From a virus, in IMG/VR virus record IMGVR_UViG_3300005253_002051: 45,744 nucleotides of DNA, one strand, 5' to 3'. The position numbers and the translations under genes are program-made. The notes under the pieces are model-generated. The model was not told the origin of the DNA. It did no database searches and was given only the letters and a program-made list of their open reading frames with translations. Of this stretch, positions 6,304 to 37,337 are shown one piece after another. The stretch's first letter is position 1. Each line of letters starts with the position of its first letter.

Positions 6304-8079
6304 GTGAGAAAGATTTTTTCATTAGCGGCAATTGCTACTACGTTTTCGTTAGTAGCCGCTGCGTTTTCGCCTAACTCAGCAAGTGCTCAGAACTACGTCG
6401 AGATGAAACCTCTCGCTGAAGTTCTTGCAGGTGCCAGTGTTCGTGATTGTCGCGGCGGTGAAGGTCAAAATGTTACCATGATCACATGGGGTGCAGACAT
6501 TTTTACTCTTCATGCTAATGGCGCGTCACTTACTACACAGCCTGGGAGCATTTTTGCCGACGAAGGCTTAACTGTTACGTTGAAGAGAGAGGATGTTTTT
6601 GCAAAGCAGGTTGAAGCATATTTGCGTTGTGACACTCCGTATCTTCGTGGGACACTTGGACAGATTAACTTAGCTAGCGACATTACTGCTGTTAATCCTG
6701 GCACCGAGATGGTTCCGATCATTCAACTTAGCTGGTCGAATGGTGGTGATGCTCTTGTTGCTAAAAAGGGTATCAATAAGCCAGCAGATCTAAAGGGTAA
6801 GACAATCGTGGTTCAGGCTTATGGGCCGCACGTTGCTTATCTTAATAAGGTTCTTGCCGACGCCGGCTTAACGCCGAACGATGTCACTATCGTTTACACC
6901 AAAGACTTAGTTGGTTTCGATGACGATACGACACCTGGAAGCGCGTTCCTCGATGATCCAAATATTGATGCGGCAATGGTTATTATTCCAGATGCGCTAA
7001 AATTAACATCAGGTGGAACTGGCGGAACTGGCGCAGAGAATTCGTTCGACGGCGCAGAGATTATGCTTTCTACCAAATCTGCAAGCCGTGTTATCGCAGA
7101 CGTTTATGTCGTGCGCAAAGACTACCTTGAGGCAAACAGAGATGAAGTTCAGAAGTTTGTTCACGCTCTCTTAGTTGCCGAGGAAAGTCTTAGGAAGCTG
7201 GTTCTAGAGAAAGATACTCGGACAGATGAATACAACGCGATTATTGTTGCCGCTGCCGGTCATCTTCTCGATGCTCCAACTGACATCGACGACACGGAAG
7301 GTATGTATGCCGATGCCGAGACAATTGGGTTTGCTGGCAACAAGAAGTTCTTTGAAAACACTAAGTATCCAAGGAACGTCACTAAGCTTACCAGTGAGAT
7401 CCAGACGGCGTATGTCCAGCAAGGTATGTTGGCTGCTACTGCATCATTAGGTTCTGCTACTTGGAACTATGATGCTCTAAAGGCTGGCATCACTAACACG
7501 ATTGCTAAAACTACGCCTAAGTTCAATGCCGATAAGTTGGCCGCTGCTGTGACCAACATGGCATCAAGCGGCGCCTTAGATGATGGAACATTATTCGAGT
7601 TCCAAATCAACTTTCAGCCGGAACAGGACACATTCTCTGTGGAGATTTATGGAGATGCGTTTAAGCAGGTAGTTGACCTAGCATCTACTTATGCTGGCGC
7701 GATTATTACGGTTGAAGGGCACAGTGATCCAGCAAACTTCATTAAGAAGATGAAGAACGGTGCTGGTGAAGGTATTCTAAATCGTATTAGGCAGCGTGCC
7801 AAGAATCTTAGCGTTAGTCGCTCAACTGCGGTTCGTAAGGCTGTCTTGGACATGGCTGCTGCTTCTGGTGTTCCGATGGACCCAAGTCAGTTTGTGACTA
7901 TTGGTTATGGCATTTCAAACCCGGCTACTGGTGTCTGTCAGAGAAAAGATGAGCCACTTTGCTTAGCTGCTGGACTTCCAAGATATCCGGCAAATAAAGC
8001 GGAATGGCTTAACAACATGCGTGTTGTGTTTAAAATCATTAACGTCGAGGCTGAATCCTCAGCGTTCGAAACATTTTAA
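6304..8079 (+). CDS. secreted protein: periplasmic solute-binding-like N-domain plus C-terminal OmpA/MotB-like peptidoglycan-binding domain
   Basis: Signal peptide MRKIFSLAAIATTFSLVAAAFSPNSASAQ. C-terminus ITVEGHSDPANF..NLSVSRSTAVRKAVL..GYGISNP matches the OmpA_C motif. Confidence 0.7.
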   Translation: MRKIFSLAAIATTFSLVAAAFSPNSASAQNYVEMKPLAEVLAGASVRDCRGGEGQNVTMITWGADIFTLHANGASLTTQPGSIFADEGLTVTLKREDVFAKQVEAYLRCDTPYLRGTLGQINLASDITAVNPGTEMVPIIQLSWSNGGDALVAKKGINKPADLKGKTIVVQAYGPHVAYLNKVLADAGLTPNDVTIVYTKDLVGFDDDTTPGSAFLDDPNIDAAMVIIPDALKLTSGGTGGTGAENSFDGAEIMLSTKSASRVIADVYVVRKDYLEANRDEVQKFVHALLVAEESLRKLVLEKDTRTDEYNAIIVAAAGHLLDAPTDIDDTEGMYADAETIGFAGNKKFFENTKYPRNVTKLTSEIQTAYVQQGMLAATASLGSATWNYDALKAGITNTIAKTTPKFNADKLAAAVTNMASSGALDDGTLFEFQINFQPEQDTFSVEIYGDAFKQVVDLASTYAGAIITVEGHSDPANFIKKMKNGAGEGILNRIRQRAKNLSVSRSTAVRKAVLDMAAASGVPMDPSQFVTIGYGISNPATGVCQRKDEPLCLAAGLPRYPANKAEWLNNMRVVFKIINVEAESSAFETF

Positions 8080-8094
8080 GGGGAGGGTAGTAAC

Positions 8095-8898
8095 ATGTTG
8101 AAACTTAGATTATTTGCTGCTCTTGTCATAGCAGGTGGCGTGCTTGCCGCCTGCGACGACGCCCCAAGCCAGGGCAATGCAATCGGCACTACGAAAACGG
8201 CTACATCGTCGGGAAGTTCTTCTAGTGCTACGACAGTATCTTCTGTCAAGGCCAATGTAGTTTGGCCCGGTATGGCGCCCGAAGATATGAACGTTGCTAT
8301 CGATAGCAATCTAACACGTTCTAACTTTATGGTGGTTTACGATGGTTCGGGTAGCATGGATTACGATTCTTGTGGCTCAAATAGTCCAAACCGTCATGCT
8401 GATGGTGTCATAGCCCTTAAAGAGTTTGTCAAAGCAGTTCCAGACGACGCGAATCTTGGATTGTTTGTTTTCGACGGAAAAGGAATGGCTGTTAGAGTTC
8501 CTCTTGCTGTTGGAAACCGAGACATATTCTTAAGCGAGGTTGATAGCATTAGTATTGGCCAAGGAACTCCATTAAGGTCGGCGATTAAGACTGCCTACTT
8601 TGAACTTAAAAATCGAGCTTATCGTCAGCTTGGTTATGGTAGGTATTCGTTGGTTATTGTCACCGACGGAGAAGCAAACAGCGGCGAAGATCCAACAAGA
8701 ATCGTCAATGATATTATTGATGAGACTCCTGTTGAGGTTCATACCGTTGGGCTTTGCTTTAGTGGTAGACATTCGTTGAATCAGGCAGGTAGGACATTCT
8801 ACACCGACGCCCAAAATCCGGCGCAACTTATCGAAGGATTGAAGAGCGTTCTGGCTGAAACTTCAGTGGATGACGCTGCGGAGTTTAATACGCAGTAA
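8095..8898 (+). CDS. lipoprotein with von Willebrand factor A (vWA) domain
   Basis: Lipobox LAAC after an N-terminal hydrophobic stretch. MIDAS motif DGSGSM, followed by GTPLRSAI and VIVTDGEANSG. Confidence 0.75.
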   Translation: MLKLRLFAALVIAGGVLAACDDAPSQGNAIGTTKTATSSGSSSSATTVSSVKANVVWPGMAPEDMNVAIDSNLTRSNFMVVYDGSGSMDYDSCGSNSPNRHADGVIALKEFVKAVPDDANLGLFVFDGKGMAVRVPLAVGNRDIFLSEVDSISIGQGTPLRSAIKTAYFELKNRAYRQLGYGRYSLVIVTDGEANSGEDPTRIVNDIIDETPVEVHTVGLCFSGRHSLNQAGRTFYTDAQNPAQLIEGLKSVLAETSVDDAAEFNTQ

Positions 8899-8903
8899 AA
8901 GAC

Positions 8904-26765: not shown

Positions 26766-28289
26766 ATGAAAGAAAAAGTAGATTATCTTTTAAAAAGCAT
26801 GGGCGTTGTTCCATCTTCGTTTGAAGGAAACCGGCTCGTTTACACTCCGATTAATGGCACGGAGATCGGTTCAGTTCAAGACACTATCTCTTCTGTAAAA
26901 GAGATGTTGCCGACTATTAAACAGTCAACAGAAGCATTTAATGAGTGGAAAAATGTTCCAGGTCCACAACGTGGTGAGTTAATAAGACTTTTCGCTGAAC
27001 AGCTTCGTATATATAAACAGCCACTTGGAGAGCTTGTCACAATTGAGAACGGTAAAATTCTTCAAGAAGGACTCGGCGAAGTTCAGGAGATGATTGATAT
27101 CTGTGATTTTGCTGTAGGACTGTCGCGTCAACTATATGGTCTAACAATTGCTTCTGAGCGTCCTGGACATAAACTAATGGAAACATGGCACCCACTAGGT
27201 CCTGTCGCTGTTATCACTGCTTTCAACTTTCCTGTTGCTGTTTGGTCTTGGAACTTTGCGTTGGCAATAGTTTGTGGGGACAGTGTTATCTGGAAGCCAA
27301 GTGAAAAAACTCCTCTCACAGCGTTAGCTTGTCAGCAACTATTCTTGAATGCTGTGGACAATTTTGATGAAAAGTTTGATGACGTTCCTGAAAATCTGTC
27401 ACAAGTGGTTTTCGGTGGCTCGCAAGCTGGCGCCGCACTTGCTGAAAGCGATAAAATTAAGCTCGTGAGTGCTACAGGCAGCACACAGATGGGTCAGTTT
27501 ATTGCTCCCTATGTTGCAAGTCGTCTGGGACGTTATCTTCTGGAGCTGGGTGGCAATAATGGTATGATAGTCACACCATCTGCAGATTTGGATATGGCAC
27601 TTAAAGCTATCGTCTTTAGTGCTGTTGGAACTGCTGGACAACGTTGCACTACATTAAGGCGTGTTATTGTTCACGAAGATATTCATGATGATCTTGTGCG
27701 AAAACTTAAGAAGGCATACAATACAATCTCTATCGGAAATCCGCTTGATGAAAAAAATCTAGTTGGTCCATTGATTGATGGATCTGCGTTTGGTGATATG
27801 GAGCTTTCGTTATCCGTAGCTGCCAATGAAGGCGGAACTGTGTTTGGCGGTGAGCGCGTATTAGAAGATAAATTTTCTTCGTATGGATACTATGTAAAGC
27901 CGGCAATTGTTGAAATGCCAGAACAGTCAGCTATTGTCAAACGTGAGACATTTGCTCCTATTCTTTATGTAATGAAATACAGTGATTTTGATGATGCTCT
28001 AGAAATGCACAATGATGTCCCACAAGGATTAAGTTCTTGTATTTTTAGCACCGATATTAGAGAGACAGAAAAATTCCTATCGACAAGTGACTGTGGACTT
28101 GCTAATGTAAACATCGGACCAAGTGGCGCAGAAATAGGAGGCGCGTTTGGTGGAGAAAAAGAAACAGGTGGTGGTCGCGAAAGCGGAAGCGATGCTTGGA
28201 AGAGCTACATGCGTCGTGCTACTAACACGATAAACTATTCTACAGAGTTGCCATTGGCCCAAGGTATTAAATTTGATGTAGGAGATTGA
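26766..28289 (+). CDS. aldehyde dehydrogenase, ALDH7 (antiquitin / piperideine-6-carboxylate dehydrogenase) type
   Basis: Long near-identical blocks to ALDH7A1: EVQEMIDICDFAVGLSRQLYG, ITAFNFPVAVWSWN, LELGGNN, VGTAGQRCTT, ETFAPILYV and VNIGPSGAEIGGAFGGEKETGGGRESGSDAWKSYMRRATNTINYS. Confidence 0.9.
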   Translation: MKEKVDYLLKSMGVVPSSFEGNRLVYTPINGTEIGSVQDTISSVKEMLPTIKQSTEAFNEWKNVPGPQRGELIRLFAEQLRIYKQPLGELVTIENGKILQEGLGEVQEMIDICDFAVGLSRQLYGLTIASERPGHKLMETWHPLGPVAVITAFNFPVAVWSWNFALAIVCGDSVIWKPSEKTPLTALACQQLFLNAVDNFDEKFDDVPENLSQVVFGGSQAGAALAESDKIKLVSATGSTQMGQFIAPYVASRLGRYLLELGGNNGMIVTPSADLDMALKAIVFSAVGTAGQRCTTLRRVIVHEDIHDDLVRKLKKAYNTISIGNPLDEKNLVGPLIDGSAFGDMELSLSVAANEGGTVFGGERVLEDKFSSYGYYVKPAIVEMPEQSAIVKRETFAPILYVMKYSDFDDALEMHNDVPQGLSSCIFSTDIRETEKFLSTSDCGLANVNIGPSGAEIGGAFGGEKETGGGRESGSDAWKSYMRRATNTINYSTELPLAQGIKFDVGD

Positions 28290-28881: not shown

Positions 28882-28955
28882 GCCCGGTTAGTTCAATGAT
28901 AGAACCGGACGCTCATAACGTTCTTATGGGGGTTTGATTCCCTCACCGGGTACCA
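28882..28955 (+). tRNA. tRNA-Met (anticodon CAU; initiator, elongator or Ile-lysidine type cannot be resolved by eye), CCA encoded
   Basis: The acceptor stem gcccggt/accgggt has a G-U first pair. D-stem gttc/gaac. Anticodon stem ggacg/cgttc carries the loop ctcataa (CAT). T-stem ggggg/ccctc. Discriminator A. Confidence 0.75.
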
Positions 28956-30585: not shown

Positions 30586-31683
30586 ATGTATAGGAGAAAT
30601 CGTGCGTTTCTAATGCTCGGACTAGCGGGATTGCTGGCTGGCGCCTCGGTGTATATGGCAAGGAATTGGATTCAGGATCAAACCCAATCGCCCGCGTCAG
30701 TGCAAAATGTCAAACAGATCGAAACAACTAAGGTTGTTGTTGCAGCCTCCAAACTCAGTTATGGAATCAAAGTGCAAAGTATGCATCTCCGTATTGTTGA
30801 TTGGCCAGTTAAGGCTGTTCCCGAGGGATCATTTTCAACTGTTGAAGAGATCCTCGGCGAGGGTGATCAACCCGTAAGCCGCGTTGTACTTCGCACTATT
30901 GAAATTAACGAGCCAGTTTTGAAAACCAAGGTTACTGGTTTTGGCGGCCGAGCAAGCCTGTCTACACTTATTGCTCCTGGTATGCGAGCTACTACAATTC
31001 GAGTGAACGATGTCAACGGAGTTGCTGGATTGGTGCTGCCCGGTGATCGTGTTGACATTTTACTTACACGAAGTCGGGATGCTAACGCTAGCAGGCGAAA
31101 CAAGAGTAATCTACAAACTGATATTTTCTTGCAAAATATGAAGGTCCTTGCTGTTGATCAGGATTCTAACGAAGAGAGAAATAAGCCGGCTGTGGTTAAA
31201 GCTGTCACTATTGAAGTGACTCCGACGCAGGCTCAGAAACTAACCCTCGCACAAAAACTCGGTTCTTTGTCGTTGGCGTTGCGTAATGTAAATGCTGTAG
31301 ATGTCGAAGATACGGGTCCTGTTAAGGCGCATGATTTAGGATTTGGTGAGGCAAATTTGGCGCCGACTCCTGTGGTCGAAGCTAGCAAGCCTGCAGAAAC
31401 TGTTAAAGCGCCAATTGTTATTAAGCCAGTAAAAACAGTTTCGCATAGTGTCGTGGTCAAGAAGGCGAAAAGAGCCTATACAGTTAACATTGTGCGCGGC
31501 GTGAAAGCGACCGAATACGAGGTCGAGCAGGAGAAGCCAACTTTTAGTGCTCCGGCGTTTTCTAAGCCTCTTAACTTGATCGCGCCCACGCTAACTATTT
31601 TGACTCCTACGAAACCTACTTTGGGAGTGGTATCTCTTGTGCCATGTAGTAGTGAGTTCACTTCAAACGAAGACTGTATGTAA
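30586..31683 (+). CDS. cpaB: Flp pilus assembly protein CpaB/RcpC-like
   Basis: N-terminal TM RNRAFLMLGLAGLLAGASVYMA is followed by an SAF-like block VVVAASKLSYGIKVQSMHLRIVDWPVKAVPEGSF and an RcpC-like beta domain. RBS GGAGGTG. Confidence 0.65.
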   Translation: MYRRNRAFLMLGLAGLLAGASVYMARNWIQDQTQSPASVQNVKQIETTKVVVAASKLSYGIKVQSMHLRIVDWPVKAVPEGSFSTVEEILGEGDQPVSRVVLRTIEINEPVLKTKVTGFGGRASLSTLIAPGMRATTIRVNDVNGVAGLVLPGDRVDILLTRSRDANASRRNKSNLQTDIFLQNMKVLAVDQDSNEERNKPAVVKAVTIEVTPTQAQKLTLAQKLGSLSLALRNVNAVDVEDTGPVKAHDLGFGEANLAPTPVVEASKPAETVKAPIVIKPVKTVSHSVVVKKAKRAYTVNIVRGVKATEYEVEQEKPTFSAPAFSKPLNLIAPTLTILTPTKPTLGVVSLVPCSSEFTSNEDCM

Positions 31684-33479: not shown

Positions 33480-33512
33480 ATGGCGGGGGTAGAAGCCCGC
33501 CATATCATTTTT
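33480..33512 (+). terminator. rho-independent terminator of the flp-cpaB island
   Basis: ATGGCGGG-ggtagaag-CCCGCCAT, then TATCATTTTTG. Confidence 0.7.
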
Positions 33513-33523
33513 GATAAATATTA

Positions 33524-33551
33524 TTGACTTACAAATGTTTTTCTGTATAAT
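33524..33551 (+). promoter_or_regulatory. consensus promoter (TTGACT-N16-TATAAT)
   Basis: TTGACT at 33524-33529 and TATAAT at 33546-33551, upstream of the NADAR gene. Confidence 0.55.
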
Positions 33552-33604
33552 AAGTAAATGTTCTGAATGCTTCTTACAGAATCTTCAAAAATGAGGTTAA
33601 AATA

Positions 33605-34072
33605 ATGGATATTGGATCTGGCAGAGGATATCCGGCTTCTGCGCTATCAAACTTTCCTCCCCGTCCTTTCGTCTTCGATAACGTGGAATGTGCGAGCATG
33701 GAAGGTCTGCTCCAATCATTTAAGTTTGATAAACCACATATTCAAAAAGAAGTTTGTAAACTTGTTGGCAAAGCCGCAAAGTTCAGAGGAAAGAAACGCA
33801 ACAAAGCATGGAAGACCAAACAAACTCTTTGGTGGAACGGTGTAGCATTTGACAGACACGGTCCAGCGTATCAAGCACTTTTGGATGATGCGTATGACGC
33901 TTTGACTACTAACACCAAATTTCAGAAAGCGTTGTTAGCGTCAGACAAAGCAGTTTTGACACATTCAATCGGCAGCAATAACGCCAGCGAAACATGTCTT
34001 ACTACAAAAGAATTTGTTAGTCGTTTAACAAGAATTCGTTCAGAACTACAAAAAGAACAGAATACAAAATAA
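33605..34072 (+). CDS. NADAR (YbiA-like, DUF1768) domain protein - candidate ADP-ribose N-glycosidase
   Basis: YPASALSNFPPRPFVFDNVECASMEGLLQSFKF matches the NADAR signature LSNF..PF....F.S.E...QA.KF. Confidence 0.65.
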   Translation: MDIGSGRGYPASALSNFPPRPFVFDNVECASMEGLLQSFKFDKPHIQKEVCKLVGKAAKFRGKKRNKAWKTKQTLWWNGVAFDRHGPAYQALLDDAYDALTTNTKFQKALLASDKAVLTHSIGSNNASETCLTTKEFVSRLTRIRSELQKEQNTK

Positions 34073-34161
34073 ATACTAGTACTCCCTGTTCTTCAAAAAC
34101 ATAATATTCAGGATATCTCTGATTAAATGAAACTTGACATTTCCAATGAAATGGATGTATA

Positions 34162-34440
34162 ATGAAAATACAATTTAAGAAATTTTCTGCGCTTAATAGC
34201 GAAGAAATGAAATTCATTTACTGTATGCTTAGAAAGTATGGTGAAATGGAAGAGGCTAAAGAAAGAAATATTTCTAAGAAAAAATTTAAATCAACCAATA
34301 GAAGACCAAAACCAAAACCGAAAGTAAAGAAAGATTCGCCGTATCCTGATCTTTATGACTTTAATGATCTTAAATGGGAAAAGTGTACCGATGAAAAATT
34401 TCTTGCTTATCGAGAAATAATGGAAAGAGCAGGTGACTAA
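34162..34440 (+). CDS. lysine-rich small protein (92 aa); start uncertain
   Basis: ORF track. A TTGACA(34134)-N18-TATAAT(34158-34163) promoter overlaps the annotated ATG at 34162, so translation more likely begins at a downstream Met. Basic KPKPKVKK stretch. Confidence 0.4.
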   Translation: MKIQFKKFSALNSEEMKFIYCMLRKYGEMEEAKERNISKKKFKSTNRRPKPKPKVKKDSPYPDLYDFNDLKWEKCTDEKFLAYREIMERAGD

Positions 34441-35008
34441 AAAAATAGCATTTATCGGAAGTGCAGGCAGCGGAAAATCAACACTGGCAGCAGATGTTTT
34501 CGTCGAATTGAAGAAAAAAGGACATAAAGTAGAGTTAGTTACAGAGTGGATTCGTCAAGACATACAAGTCAACGGTCCTATGACGACAATATGGGAACAA
34601 TACAGAACTTTACATCATCAAAGAAGCATAGAAGACGCTGTACCCAAAGAGGCAGATTGGATGATTACGGATAGTGGCGTCTTAACTCCTTATTTTTATT
34701 CATGTTTATACACCAACAAAGCGAATGAACGCGAACGGCTTGTTTTAGCTGATATGTTTAAGTTTCTTATTGATGATTTGTATCAGAAACGTTATCATCA
34801 CGTGTTTTTCTTACCGGGTAAATATACCTATAGTACAAACAAAAATATAGCCAAAGATGGAACCAGATATCAATCAGACGAAGAGCTTCAAATTTTAGAT
34901 GACCATATGAGATTGGTTTTTACAAGAATGTTCAAGGTTGATAATATTATTGAATTAGATGTACCAATGACGAAAAGAACAAAAGAGGTCCTAAAAGTTC
35001 TGTTATAA
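34433..35008 (+). CDS. P-loop NTPase, AAA_28 / NadR-C-terminal (nucleoside/ribosylnicotinamide kinase)-like
   Basis: Walker A IAFIGSAGSGKSTLA. A 191-aa single-domain kinase fold. GTG start overlaps the previous stop. Confidence 0.5.
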   Translation: MTKKIAFIGSAGSGKSTLAADVFVELKKKGHKVELVTEWIRQDIQVNGPMTTIWEQYRTLHHQRSIEDAVPKEADWMITDSGVLTPYFYSCLYTNKANERERLVLADMFKFLIDDLYQKRYHHVFFLPGKYTYSTNKNIAKDGTRYQSDEELQILDDHMRLVFTRMFKVDNIIELDVPMTKRTKEVLKVLL

Positions 35009-35082
35009 TCTGATTGACATTAATAGAAAGCGTGTTAGTATACATTATAACAAATTGGTTTAATTTGGCTTGGGAGAGAAAA

Positions 35083-35418
35083 ATGACGGATATCTTAGAG
35101 ATCATTCAGATGTCGGATATTGCTGATCCGATTGAAGAGACCAAAACCAAAATCAAAACAGCCAAGCCAAAAATGTATCGTGTCATTTTTCTAAATGATG
35201 ACTTTACACCAATGGAGTTTGTTACGGAAATTCTACAGCAAATCTTTAGCAAATCGCGCGCTGAAGCAACTGCTATCATGTTGGAAGTTCATAACTTCGG
35301 TAAAAGCATCGTTGGAACGTATACATGCGAGATTGCCGAGCAAAAAGTTTATGAGACGATGGAGAACGCAAAGATTAGTGGTTATCCATTAAGCGCGATA
35401 ACCGAGCCGGCAGATTAA
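35083..35418 (+). CDS. clpS: ATP-dependent Clp protease adaptor protein ClpS
   Basis: MYRVIFLNDDFTPMEFVTEILQQIFSKSRAEATAIMLEVHNFGKSIVGTYTCEIAEQKV aligns with the ClpS core YKVILLNDDYTPMEFV...LAVH..GKA..G.FT.EVAETK. ATG at 35083 after GGGAGAG. The 35014 start in the ORF track is an artefact. Confidence 0.85.
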   Translation: MTDILEIIQMSDIADPIEETKTKIKTAKPKMYRVIFLNDDFTPMEFVTEILQQIFSKSRAEATAIMLEVHNFGKSIVGTYTCEIAEQKVYETMENAKISGYPLSAITEPAD

Positions 35419-35574
35419 TCACTTCGTTTTTGTCTTCTTCATATTTGGAAAAAGCTTTTTGATATTTTGGGCTAGTGTGCCTGGCCCGACGTCGGCTGTG
35501 GTGTTTTGTTTTGTGACGATTCCGACTGCTGCTGTCTCATCTACATAATTTTCAAGAAATTCTTCTGCCCGCAT
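35419..35574 (-). CDS. small protein (51 aa) whose N-terminus MRAEEFLENYV is paralogous to the upstream gene product (MRAKEFLESEV)
   Basis: Minus-strand ATG at 35574 shares a base with the TGA of the upstream gene (TGATG). Not in the ORF track. Confidence 0.35.
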   Translation of the reverse strand: MRAEEFLENYVDETAAVGIVTKQNTTADVGPGTLAQNIKKLFPNMKKTKTK

Positions 35575-36011
35575 CAGTAATCTTTTCCTTCGGCCTCTAA
35601 TTTGTCACGTAAATCTAAAAGAAATACACCAAATTTTTCTAGCGTAGGGGTGTCGGCTCGTTCTAAATCCATATAATCAGTTAGCGCATCTCTATCTGTA
35701 GATTTATCTTTTCCTTGCTGCCGCTTTACAGCTTGATCATATTTTTCTTGGTCGGACATTTTGCGATCATTATCTCTGCTAAGAGGTTCTTTACTATAAA
35801 GAACCTTAGGTCCTTTACCGCGTTTATGTAATTCTTCAGCAATAGCAAAAATAATGTCCATAGTCATTTTCAATTTGTCACCAGTTTTCACGAGGTGAAT
35901 AAAATTTCTATATAAGTCATCATAACTTACATCAAAAACAGGAAGATCTTTCTCCCTTTTCCATTGCTGTAAGTTAACGACTTCGCTTTCGAGAAATTCT
36001 TTTGCTCGCAT
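35574..36011 (-). CDS. hypothetical protein (145 aa), charged
   Basis: ORF track. Its ATG at 36011 lies 1 nt after the stop of the 441-aa gene. Confidence 0.55.
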   Translation of the reverse strand: MRAKEFLESEVVNLQQWKREKDLPVFDVSYDDLYRNFIHLVKTGDKLKMTMDIIFAIAEELHKRGKGPKVLYSKEPLSRDNDRKMSDQEKYDQAVKRQQGKDKSTDRDALTDYMDLERADTPTLEKFGVFLLDLRDKLEAEGKDY

Positions 36012-37337
36012 TTATCTGCCCAGTTCTCTTCCACGTTGTATCATTTCAGGAGTAGCAACATCACTACGCATATAGGTTCCAGGTTGAAAATTACCAGCAG
36101 ATCCTGTTAGAACAGCAAAAGCTACAATATCTTCATGGCGTCCTTTTGTACTCCACGTTTCTGATTTATTTTGTAAATTCCCCATTTTATCACGAATGTC
36201 TCTAGTTCCGTTGGCTGTTATTGCTTCACCTTGGCTTCCAACCCATGTTTTAAAATCTCTTGGAACTATAGGTTCAAATTTATCTGAATCGATTTTTGTT
36301 TTGAATCCAAGAGAAGCACCAAGATCTGCTGTAGGATATCCATGCTGCCATGACTTTTCACCGCCAACATCTGTTTTTGAATGAGGTTCCATTGGATCAG
36401 TTCTAATATCTTTCGCGATGTCCGTAGTTCCTGCACGGGTAAAACGTTGCTCGAGATCGTCTTTACGTGGAGGTGGTCTTTTCCCTCCAGCAAACGTTAC
36501 AGCCTCTTCAAGATCGTTTTGAAATTCTTCAAAAGCAAGCTGCTCTTGATATTCTTCATACATTCTTCCTAAGTCACCAGATTCATCATACTGTCCATGA
36601 TCCCAATCATCACCACCCATATAATCTTGCCATTCTTCACGTTCAGAAGGCTGACCGTCGTAATCATCTTCGGATCCCATTTCACGAGGACCATCGATAC
36701 CCATACTAGCAAATAAATCTTCAATTCGAGCAAAAACTACTTCGGAAGCAACCATATACTCACCATCCCAAGAAATATGATCTTTATATCTATCCATTAT
36801 AGCATTATAACCTTTTTCATCATTAACACTAAAAGTGATAGTTTCATCGGCTTCTGTATTATTGTAATCTTCGCCCATCCCTTTTTGTTCAGCTTCTAGT
36901 TTGTTGATTTTGTCTACAATCGCATAAGCATCCTTAACGCTTATTGGAAAATTGTCTAGAACTAAATCGTATCTTTGTTTACCCAATGGTCCTAGTTCTG
37001 CTTCAGCTTGTTTAATCTTATCCCAAATTTTCTTAAAACCTTCGCCTTCGAAATATGATGTATCATTGTAATCTTCGCCCATTTTGCTAACCGCTCCACT
37101 GGGCATGAGTTCTTGTGGATTTTCTATATAACGACTAACTGTGGCTAACAATTCTTCATAATCTACACCATTTTTCATAGCGTGATATTGAACTACCTTC
37201 TCTAGGGGATCGGTGTTGTTTTTACTCTGAAAGGCGCTAAGTGCATCACTAGCAGCACGGTCTAACGTGACAAATTCGGCGGTTGGCGCATATTCTTTAA
37301 GACCAGCTAATTCGGTCAATCTTTTTATATCAGTCAT
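36012..37337 (-). CDS. hypothetical highly acidic protein (441 aa)
   Basis: ORF track. D/E/Y-rich central region. Minus-strand promoter region is divergent from the SpoU promoter. Confidence 0.6.
   Translation of the reverse strand: MTDIKRLTELAGLKEYAPTAEFVTLDRAASDALSAFQSKNNTDPLEKVVQYHAMKNGVDYEELLATVSRYIENPQELMPSGAVSKMGEDYNDTSYFEGEGFKKIWDKIKQAEAELGPLGKQRYDLVLDNFPISVKDAYAIVDKINKLEAEQKGMGEDYNNTEADETITFSVNDEKGYNAIMDRYKDHISWDGEYMVASEVVFARIEDLFASMGIDGPREMGSEDDYDGQPSEREEWQDYMGGDDWDHGQYDESGDLGRMYEEYQEQLAFEEFQNDLEEAVTFAGGKRPPPRKDDLEQRFTRAGTTDIAKDIRTDPMEPHSKTDVGGEKSWQHGYPTADLGASLGFKTKIDSDKFEPIVPRDFKTWVGSQGEAITANGTRDIRDKMGNLQNKSETWSTKGRHEDIVAFAVLTGSAGNFQPGTYMRSDVATPEMIQRGRELGR

Follow-up and report, generated by a model that had tools for sequence, protein, structure and literature searches.

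The gene described here encodes a 155-residue protein of the phage NADAR (gp30.3/AdfN) family, an assignment that can be regarded as established as far as sequence and predicted structure permit, and it lies in the window, by which we mean the whole 45,744-bp contig from the Loki's Castle marine-sediment metagenome that was analysed. It is a new and divergent member of a family already characterised. Taking sequence, structural model and analogy with the T4 protein together, we propose that it is a stand-alone, core-only NADAR of the His type, which probably removes ADP-ribose from guanine and serves in counter-defence against a host toxin on a probable huge phage.

The gp30.3 proteins constitute the "phage NADAR" family within the NADAR superfamily (Schuller et al. 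2023, PMC11543638; Toxins 2024, PMC11125620), and gp30.3 was renamed AdfN (anti-DarT factor NADAR) by Johannesman et al. (PMC11257639; Nat Commun 2025). T-even phages need AdfN to escape DarTG1, and AdfN suffices for this escape. The enzyme strips ADP-ribose from DarT1-modified DNA and does not bind DarT1; the substitutions E36A and K43A each destroy its function, as does removal of the C-terminal helix, and in the RB69 allele a truncation that takes away this helix abolishes function (PMC11257639). T4 gp30.3 hydrolyses guanine-ADPr, not thymidine-ADPr or cytidine-ADPr; G-ADPr on RNA is also removed by all NADAR families. When rescue from DarT1 toxicity is scored on host DNA that is unmodified, however, T4 gp30.3 gives none. 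Phage NADARs were predicted in 2012, their activity was shown in 2023-2024 and the defeat of DarTG1 in 2024-2025.

Family assignment, active site and predicted fold

A Pfam search with the 155-residue protein returned PF08010 (Bacteriophage protein GP30.3) with an E value of 1.3e-58 (bit score 197, the cut-off being 36), which places the homology far above chance, and the match spans residues 8-146 of the protein and positions 1-138 of the 138 of the profile. By BLASTP it is 37% identical to T4 gp30.3 (translated from LR597657) over 150 residues (E 5e-29); the alignment extends through the final residue of the T4 protein and so includes the C-terminal helix. The original prediction, which called the product YbiA-like, had proposed the Pfam NADAR model PF08719 as a check, and this model gave no match to the protein even at E <= 10; in Pfam the phage branch has an entry of its own, PF08010, and the missing match reflects the limited sensitivity of the sequence model and does not contradict NADAR membership. 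The link to the superfamily rests on the fold, the motifs, the literature and a weak hhalign match, in which the family profile was aligned with the single E. coli YbiA sequence on SNF...E..Q..KF (E 6e-5, probability 65%).

Homologues were found by tblastn in 1,507 phage records, with Caulobacter phage CcrPW at the top (64%) and T4-like phages at about 36%, and a search of 5.8 billion proteins gave 2,225 relatives, with PF08010 present in all 120 among the matches listed; an identical protein was retrieved only from two short sediment contigs. The protein also matches PHROG 652, a family to which no function is assigned. NCBIfam and PADLOC searches with the protein returned nothing meaningful, PDB sequence searches (with the single sequence and with a 34-sequence profile) gave chance matches only and no NADAR chains, a 2.5-kb megablast query matched none of 50,697 phage records, and an exact 41-mer was found neither in IMG/VR nor in JGI metagenome contigs. 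Within the sub-group that contains the window protein, identity stays at 60-70% between jumbo and huge phages with unrelated hosts, metagenome-assembled genomes (MAGs) of small-genome bacteria, Patescibacteria chromosomes and contigs binned to archaea.

The motif region of the protein reads ALSNFPPRPFVFDNVECASMEGLLQSFKF; LSNF, PF, S.E and LQ.FKF, that is, all the elements of the signature quoted in the original prediction, are present, with a spacing that differs by one or two residues from the one quoted. Conservation was assessed in 161 sequences, namely 159 homologues from 80 genome and 80 IMG/VR loci, T4 and the window protein. Three positions are invariant in this set, N16, E33 and K40 (161/161 each), and the others of the motifs vary little: H120 is kept in 160 of the 161 sequences, F17 and Q37 in 159 each, and S15 in 152. 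The equivalent of E33 in PnNADAR is E43, a residue in contact with the distal ribose. The catalytic position on the last strand is occupied by His in phage NADARs, by Glu in YbiA and by Asp in the DarT1-associated NADARs (PMC11543638, PMC11125620), and by H120 the window protein belongs to the His-type family, so that the label YbiA-like does not hold in the sense of family. As judged from the alignments, E33, K40 and H120 are the intact predicted catalytic residues. The comparison of catalytic Glu/Asp residues that had been suggested is thus borne out for E33, with K40 kept as well, while the third position is not acidic; since His is the hallmark of phage NADARs, an acidic residue missing there is expected and not disqualifying. 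The absence of a PF08719 match and the loss of conserved catalytic acidic residues had been named as findings that would speak against the NADAR assignment, and with a negative PF08719 search and a His in the place of the "catalytic acid" both would have misfired.

An AlphaFold2 model built with 34 sequences (mean pLDDT 83.4) shows a pair of small beta-hairpins and a helical core, with a long helix (134-154) at the C terminus. The predicted structure fits the alpha+beta fold of YbiA/NADAR proteins, a helical core with small beta-hairpins on either side. Membership in the NADAR superfamily, as originally claimed, is therefore sustained by a full-length PF08010/T4 AdfN homology, by the predicted fold and by the conservation of the catalytic residues.

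Set against the known systems, the window protein is most like T4 AdfN, with which it shares the core-only NADAR fold (155 against 152 aa), the SNF, E..Q..K and His residues, an intact C-terminal helix, and a gene that stands alone without a cognate toxin on a large, probably phage, genome. It differs in its sequence and in belonging to a far more widespread sub-group, in the location of its gene away from the DNA ligase and the T4 30.x cluster, and in its carrier, an uncultured marine-sediment element, whereas T4 AdfN is tuned to hydroxymethylcytosine DNA. DarG1 (BC4488-type; E. coli C7, Geobacter lovleyi 8BAT) sits in a DarT1-NADAR operon, carries Asp at the last-strand position and has an N-terminal extension made of a helix and a beta-sheet, whereas the window protein has His, consists of the 155-residue core only and is encoded with no DarT1 adjacent; membership in the DarG1 family was ruled out on these three grounds. 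E. coli YbiA (2B3W; PF08719 family) has the family-defining Glu, is about 16-22% identical to the window protein, and belongs to a LexA-controlled cellular operon with an N-glycosidase role on riboflavin intermediates; the YbiA family proper was likewise ruled out, by H120 instead of Glu and by the lack of a PF08719 match. NADAR-Bas32 and NADAR-Bas60 (T5-like phages and Vequintavirinae) are also orphan phage NADARs that neutralise DarT1, but they were acquired independently, fall in archaeal-like and bacterial non-YbiA branches, are not of the PF08010 type and are active on unmodified DNA. DarG2 and phage macrodomain antitoxin-like proteins follow the same strategy, in that removal of base-linked ADP-ribose cancels a DarT toxin, but they do so with the unrelated macrodomain fold and on thymidine-ADPr made by DarT2.

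Regulatory anatomy and gene neighbourhood

The features of the locus are collected in Table 1. The interval first proposed for the gene, from 33524 to 34072, runs from the first base of the -35 hexamer to the last base of the stop codon.

Table 1. Features of the NADAR locus in window coordinates
Feature	Coordinates	Strand	Remarks
Intrinsic-terminator-like hairpin and T-run	33480..33513 (stem 33480-33503)	+	closes the upstream 585-aa membrane-protein gene
Sigma-70-type promoter	33524..33551	+	-35 TTGACT 33524-33529, 16-nt spacer, -10 TATAAT 33546-33551; 11/12 matches (promoter scan)
Shine-Dalgarno GAGGT	33593..33597	+	7-8 nt 5' of ATG; read from sequence
CDS, phage-type NADAR (gp30.3/AdfN family), predicted ADP-ribosylglycohydrolase	33605..34072	+	155 aa; ATG start, TAA stop
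S15-N16-F17 codons, SNF motif opening the NADAR core	33647..33655	+	aligns with SNF of T4 gp30.3 and E. coli YbiA
E33...Q37...K40 codons, motif E-G-L-L-Q-S-F-K	33701..33724	+	E33 = T4 AdfN E36; K40 = T4 AdfN K43
H120 codon, last-strand catalytic position	33962..33964	+	aligned with His of T4 LKHS
Perfect sigma-70 promoter TTGACA-18 nt-TATAAT	34134..34163	+	12/12; serves the downstream 92-aa, AAA_28 kinase-like and ClpS genes; outside the NADAR gene

The stem of the upstream hairpin has 8 bp, of which 6 are G:C, with ATCATTTTTG directly 3' of it; the folded RNA has an energy of -19.6 kcal/mol (z = -4.0), none of 200 shuffled sequences being equally stable, and in the relative L177 the stem is kept by a compensatory change from G:C to A:T and by a G:U pair. 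The promoter that follows has both hexamers unchanged in L176 and L177, whose proteins are 90-92% identical to that of the window, and identical hexamers are also present in L003. Transcription is predicted to start at about 33558, giving a leader of about 46 nt in which no significant structure was found by folding, and the AGGT of the Shine-Dalgarno sequence is kept in the relatives. The promoter had been described as strong, standing alone right after a terminator; the hairpin and the close match to consensus agree with this description, but such promoters are general on the contig, where nine sites with at least 11 of 12 sigma-70 matches were counted on the plus strand against 0.8 expected, and most of the near-consensus promoters stand a short way 5' of ORF starts. 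Since they are so common, the NADAR promoter looks real but is not special to this gene, and early expression, for which this promoter of a kind shared by many genes of the contig is the one basis, would be a tentative reading.

Between the NADAR stop codon and the perfect promoter downstream no terminator-like hairpin was found; the -10 hexamer of that promoter overlaps an annotated ATG at 34162, and the promoter is conserved in L176 and L177. An Rfam scan of the window returned nothing beyond three tRNAs, which are scattered.

The local gene order is RpiB, (CpaB), the 585-aa membrane protein, NADAR, a 92-aa ORF, an AAA_28 protein, ClpS, a minus-strand island and SpoU. It is kept in close relatives, and neither this order nor the immediate neighbours (92-aa ORF, AAA_28, ClpS) recur in 160 more distant loci. 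Of the ten ORFs compared with PADLOC, the immediate neighbours included, none matched DarT or another defence model; the Pfam scan of window ORFs brought up no ADP-ribosyltransferase domain, and no toxin-like family recurs beside the relatives in 159 loci. With no DarT toxin nearby, the gene is an orphan. The neighbours that do recur in the 159 loci are ATP-dependent DNA ligase (9), NT5C (7), Pol III alpha (7), Macro (5) and NAMPT (5), together with DUF4326 and RecJ, and no neighbour cluster exceeds 9; across its relatives the gene is a loner amid replication, nucleotide and NAD-related genes. Two homologues, each 66% identical, have contrasting surroundings: one is flanked by ribonucleotide reductase and dUTPase on a phage contig of 353 kb, and the other lies among ribosomal protein L19, ClpB, PolA and GatB on a Patescibacteria contig, which is a genuine chromosomal setting.

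In T4 the gp30.3 match stands three ORFs 5' of a 1,464-bp gene labelled hypothetical in the record, which we take to be the DNA ligase gene, gene 30. The DNA ligase beside nine of the relative loci echoes this T4 arrangement. The AAA_28 P-loop kinase encoded downstream of the window gene weakly matches a PHROG family that bears the label nicotinamide-nucleotide adenylyltransferase, in the kinase part of this family; a link with NAD salvage through this neighbour was considered and found no support, the matches being those of a generic P-loop kinase and NCBIfam giving no assignment.

The carrier contig

The aldehyde dehydrogenase (ALDH) of the window is KKN46794.1 (LCGC14_0669220), and an ALDH at least 90% identical is encoded on a contig of 142 kb. 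Besides ALDH, the window encodes an S41/PDZ protease, TelA, VWA, OmpA-domain and substrate-binding proteins, an ABC permease and ATPase, an 858-aa major-vault-protein-like protein, HSP20, a histidine-kinase core, an RlmN-like radical-SAM enzyme, RpiB, RcpC/CpaB, ClpS, a SpoU methylase and a 1,670-aa subtilase with Ig repeats. Many of these genes look cellular. The layout is dense: nearly all genes share one strand, many of the small ORFs match no family, and consensus promoters recur along the contig.

A block of six successive window genes (6304-15354) is found in the same order in part of the 595-kb phage LR756511.1, in which homologues of ALDH and of the ORF at 16180-16779 lie inside the same 13 kb, and jumbo-phage homologues exist for TelA, the 585-aa membrane protein and the ORF at 16180. 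The vault-like protein was found, among the 50,697 phage records, only in LR756500, LR756501 and LR756503, all complete huge phages, with 39-40% identity over the full length; it has no close relatives in IMG/VR, and no further synteny was found around its gene in LR756500 and LR756501. The colinear block and the vault-like protein shared with published huge phages point to a huge-phage fragment, and we consider it quite likely that the contig derives from a phage or a similar mobile element.

The contig might instead be cellular, for example from a small-genome episymbiont, with the NADAR as a chromosomal orphan that shields the nucleic acids of its own cell from ADP-ribosylating toxins made by competitors, hosts or phages, and not as a gene for phage counter-defence. 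This is rather unlikely, even if it accords with the S41 protease, TelA, VWA, OmpA, ABC transporter, ALDH, RpiB, CpaB, ClpS, SpoU and subtilase genes, with the lack of capsid, tail, terminase or other virion genes in the 45.7-kb window, with the Patescibacteria homologue amid L19, ClpB, PolA and GatB, and with the many relatives binned in Patescibacteria, Melainabacteria and other MAGs. Against it stand the clustering of eight window genes in 13 kb of the 595-kb phage, the restriction of the vault-like protein to three huge phages within the phage collection, the dense single-strand layout with its family-less small ORFs, scattered tRNAs and string of consensus promoters, and the fact that these 45.7 kb hold no ribosomal or other core housekeeping gene.

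Proposed role and its meaning for the family

On the preferred reading, that of counter-defence on a mobile genome, the sigma-70 RNA polymerase of the host would transcribe the gene from the near-consensus promoter in front of it, and the carrier would most probably be a huge phage from marine sediment. The enzyme would bind ADP-ribose carried on the guanine N2 of DNA, perhaps also of RNA, and its E33/K40/H120 centre would cleave the N-glycosidic bond between ribose and base, restoring the unmodified base. As an "orphan antitoxin", it would undo the damage done by a host ADP-ribosyltransferase of the DarT1 type (or of the pierisin/ScARP type), and by removal of ADP-ribose the DNA replication and transcription of the element could continue. 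The candidacy for counter-defence put forward in the original prediction is in this respect upheld by analogy, published experiments on enzymes of this kind having demonstrated both the reversal of guanine ADP-ribosylation and, in phages, the countering of DarTG1. Guanine-ADPr as the substrate and a DarT1-like enzyme as the target toxin are best read as expectations from the family, and with 37% identity to the sole characterised member, itself tuned to hydroxymethylcytosine DNA, the substrate preference of T4 AdfN is not transferable to the window protein.

Other substrates could be served by the same fold, such as soluble ADP-ribose derivatives, be they products left over from RNA repair or immune signals or toxins of the kind of the cyclic ADPR variants; the ADP-ribose might also be removed from RNA and not from DNA. 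We hold this to be unlikely. Iyer et al. (PMC9503650) made a contextual argument for it, all NADAR families act on G-ADPr RNA as well, Macro-domain and NAMPT/NadV genes recur beside relatives in five loci each, and the AAA_28 neighbour has its weak match to the adenylyltransferase-labelled PHROG; but the only member tested, that of T4, works on DNA guanine-ADPr and rescues the phage from DarTG1, the residues serving the G-ADPr reaction are invariant here, no conserved neighbour is found across the 159 loci, and the AAA_28 protein has no specific NAD-related assignment. A related reading, suggested by the contrast between 60-70% identity across the sub-group and 37% to T4 AdfN, is that the sub-group may be a functionally distinct branch of His-type NADARs, acting on a wider range of substrates or on another one, for instance RNA, unmodified DNA or a soluble ADP-ribose signal, or having a dual role in phage counter-defence and in the cellular immunity of episymbionts; this we regard as quite unlikely. 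It is very improbable that the protein reverses or tunes ADP-ribosylation by the element's own transferases, as with Alt, ModA and ModB of T4, and not by a host toxin: T4-like phages do co-express NADARs and early ADP-ribosyltransferases (Iyer et al., PMC9503650), but the Pfam-scanned ORFs of the window have no such domain and the role shown for T4 AdfN is anti-DarT1. Extremely improbable, finally, is a metabolic N-glycosidase of the YbiA kind that detoxifies intermediates of the riboflavin pathway, to which the fold and the SNF/E..Q..KF motifs common to E. coli YbiA, and the name "YbiA" given to relatives in some databases, might point; the protein belongs to the His-type phage family and not to the Glu-type YbiA family, a riboflavin gene context is absent, and the activity tested in the family concerns ADP-ribosylated guanine.

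Conceptually the gene adds little, and what is worth noting concerns method and distribution. The PF08719 model misses the whole family, so that a survey relying on it will find too few phage NADARs unless PF08010 is used as well. A His-type NADAR in a genuine Patescibacteria chromosome means that counter-defence is not the sole possible role of the family, and this "phage" NADAR of Patescibacteria may deserve separate study. Moreover, AdfN-type counter-defence would be extended to an uncultured deep-sea-sediment element, probably a huge phage, and the presence of such a gene there suggests that guanine-ADP-ribosylating defences, or toxins of the same chemistry, matter in that environment.

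Relationships to huge phages

Six consecutive genes of the window are colinear with positions 310,664-323,686 of LR756511.1, a published 595-kb huge phage (20664-33686 in locus L175), the encoded proteins being 27-40% identical, and an ALDH gene (window 26766-28289) together with one further ORF (window 16180-16779) was also matched near the colinear block in that genome. The six-gene block represents an envelope/transport module conserved in huge phages. The 858-aa vault-like protein is matched, within the phage collection, by only three complete huge-phage genomes, at 39-40% identity over its full length.

Features of the window
Feature	Coordinates	Description
tRNA-Gly (TCC)	1026-1099	one of three dispersed tRNA genes
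Colinear genes	6304-15354	substrate-binding-like protein, VWA protein, substrate-binding/OmpA fusion, substrate-binding protein, ABC permease, ABC ATPase
Vault-like protein	17380-19956	858 aa; major-vault-protein shoulder and repeat domains
tRNA-Leu (CAA)	23935-24018	
tRNA-Met (CAT)	28882-28955	
RcpC/CpaB-like gene	30586-31683	SAF and RcpC domains; between RpiB and a 585-aa membrane protein
Sigma-70 promoter	within 34134-34210	perfect (TTGACA-18 nt-TATAAT); 3' of the NADAR stop
AAA_28 P-loop kinase-like and ClpS adaptor homologue genes	34433-35418	directly 3' of the NADAR unit
Island	35419-37337	minus strand; three ORFs (51, 145 and 441 aa)

A histidine-kinase-like gene lies directly 5' of the Leu tRNA. 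The RcpC/CpaB-like gene is absent from the relative contig L177, which is elsewhere syntenic with the window, and this difference reflects a recent gain or loss.

Genes downstream of NADAR

The perfect sigma-70 promoter is kept in the relative contigs L176 and L177. The ATG at 34162 that opens a 92-aa ORF overlaps the -10 hexamer of this promoter; the ATG at 34207 may be the true start of this gene, or alternatively its first 15 codons may lie off the transcript. The AAA_28 protein matches PHROG families that carry the labels 'thymidylate kinase' and 'nicotinamide-nucleotide adenylyltransferase', and the ClpS homologue bears an additional N-terminal segment of about 50 aa; that a probable phage should encode ClpS points to manipulation of host N-degron proteolysis.

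The island that follows runs opposite to the rest of the contig, which is otherwise one-strand. Its first two ORFs share the N-terminus MRA(K/E)EFLE, and shorter versions (369 and 116 aa) occur in close relatives. Neither the 145-aa nor the 441-aa ORF has a match in Pfam or PADLOC, and the latter has none in PHROG or NCBIfam.

NADAR homologues in other genomes

Across the loci of more distant homologues (L005-L164), no DarT-like partner was found within 4 kb of NADAR. The genes that recur, though infrequently, within this distance in the window's NADAR sub-group encode ATP-dependent DNA ligase (9 loci), NT5C nucleotidase and Pol III alpha (7 each), AAA_33 kinase (6), and Macro domain, NAMPT/NadV, DUF4326, RecJ and SF1 helicase proteins (5 each).

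At 8001-8477 the Patescibacteria contig L171 encodes P0036, a His-type gp30.3 NADAR that shares 66% identity with the protein of the window. Its neighbourhood, which includes SHMT, ribosomal protein L19, ClpB, PolA and GatB, is genuinely cellular, and the 'phage NADAR' family therefore extends beyond phages.
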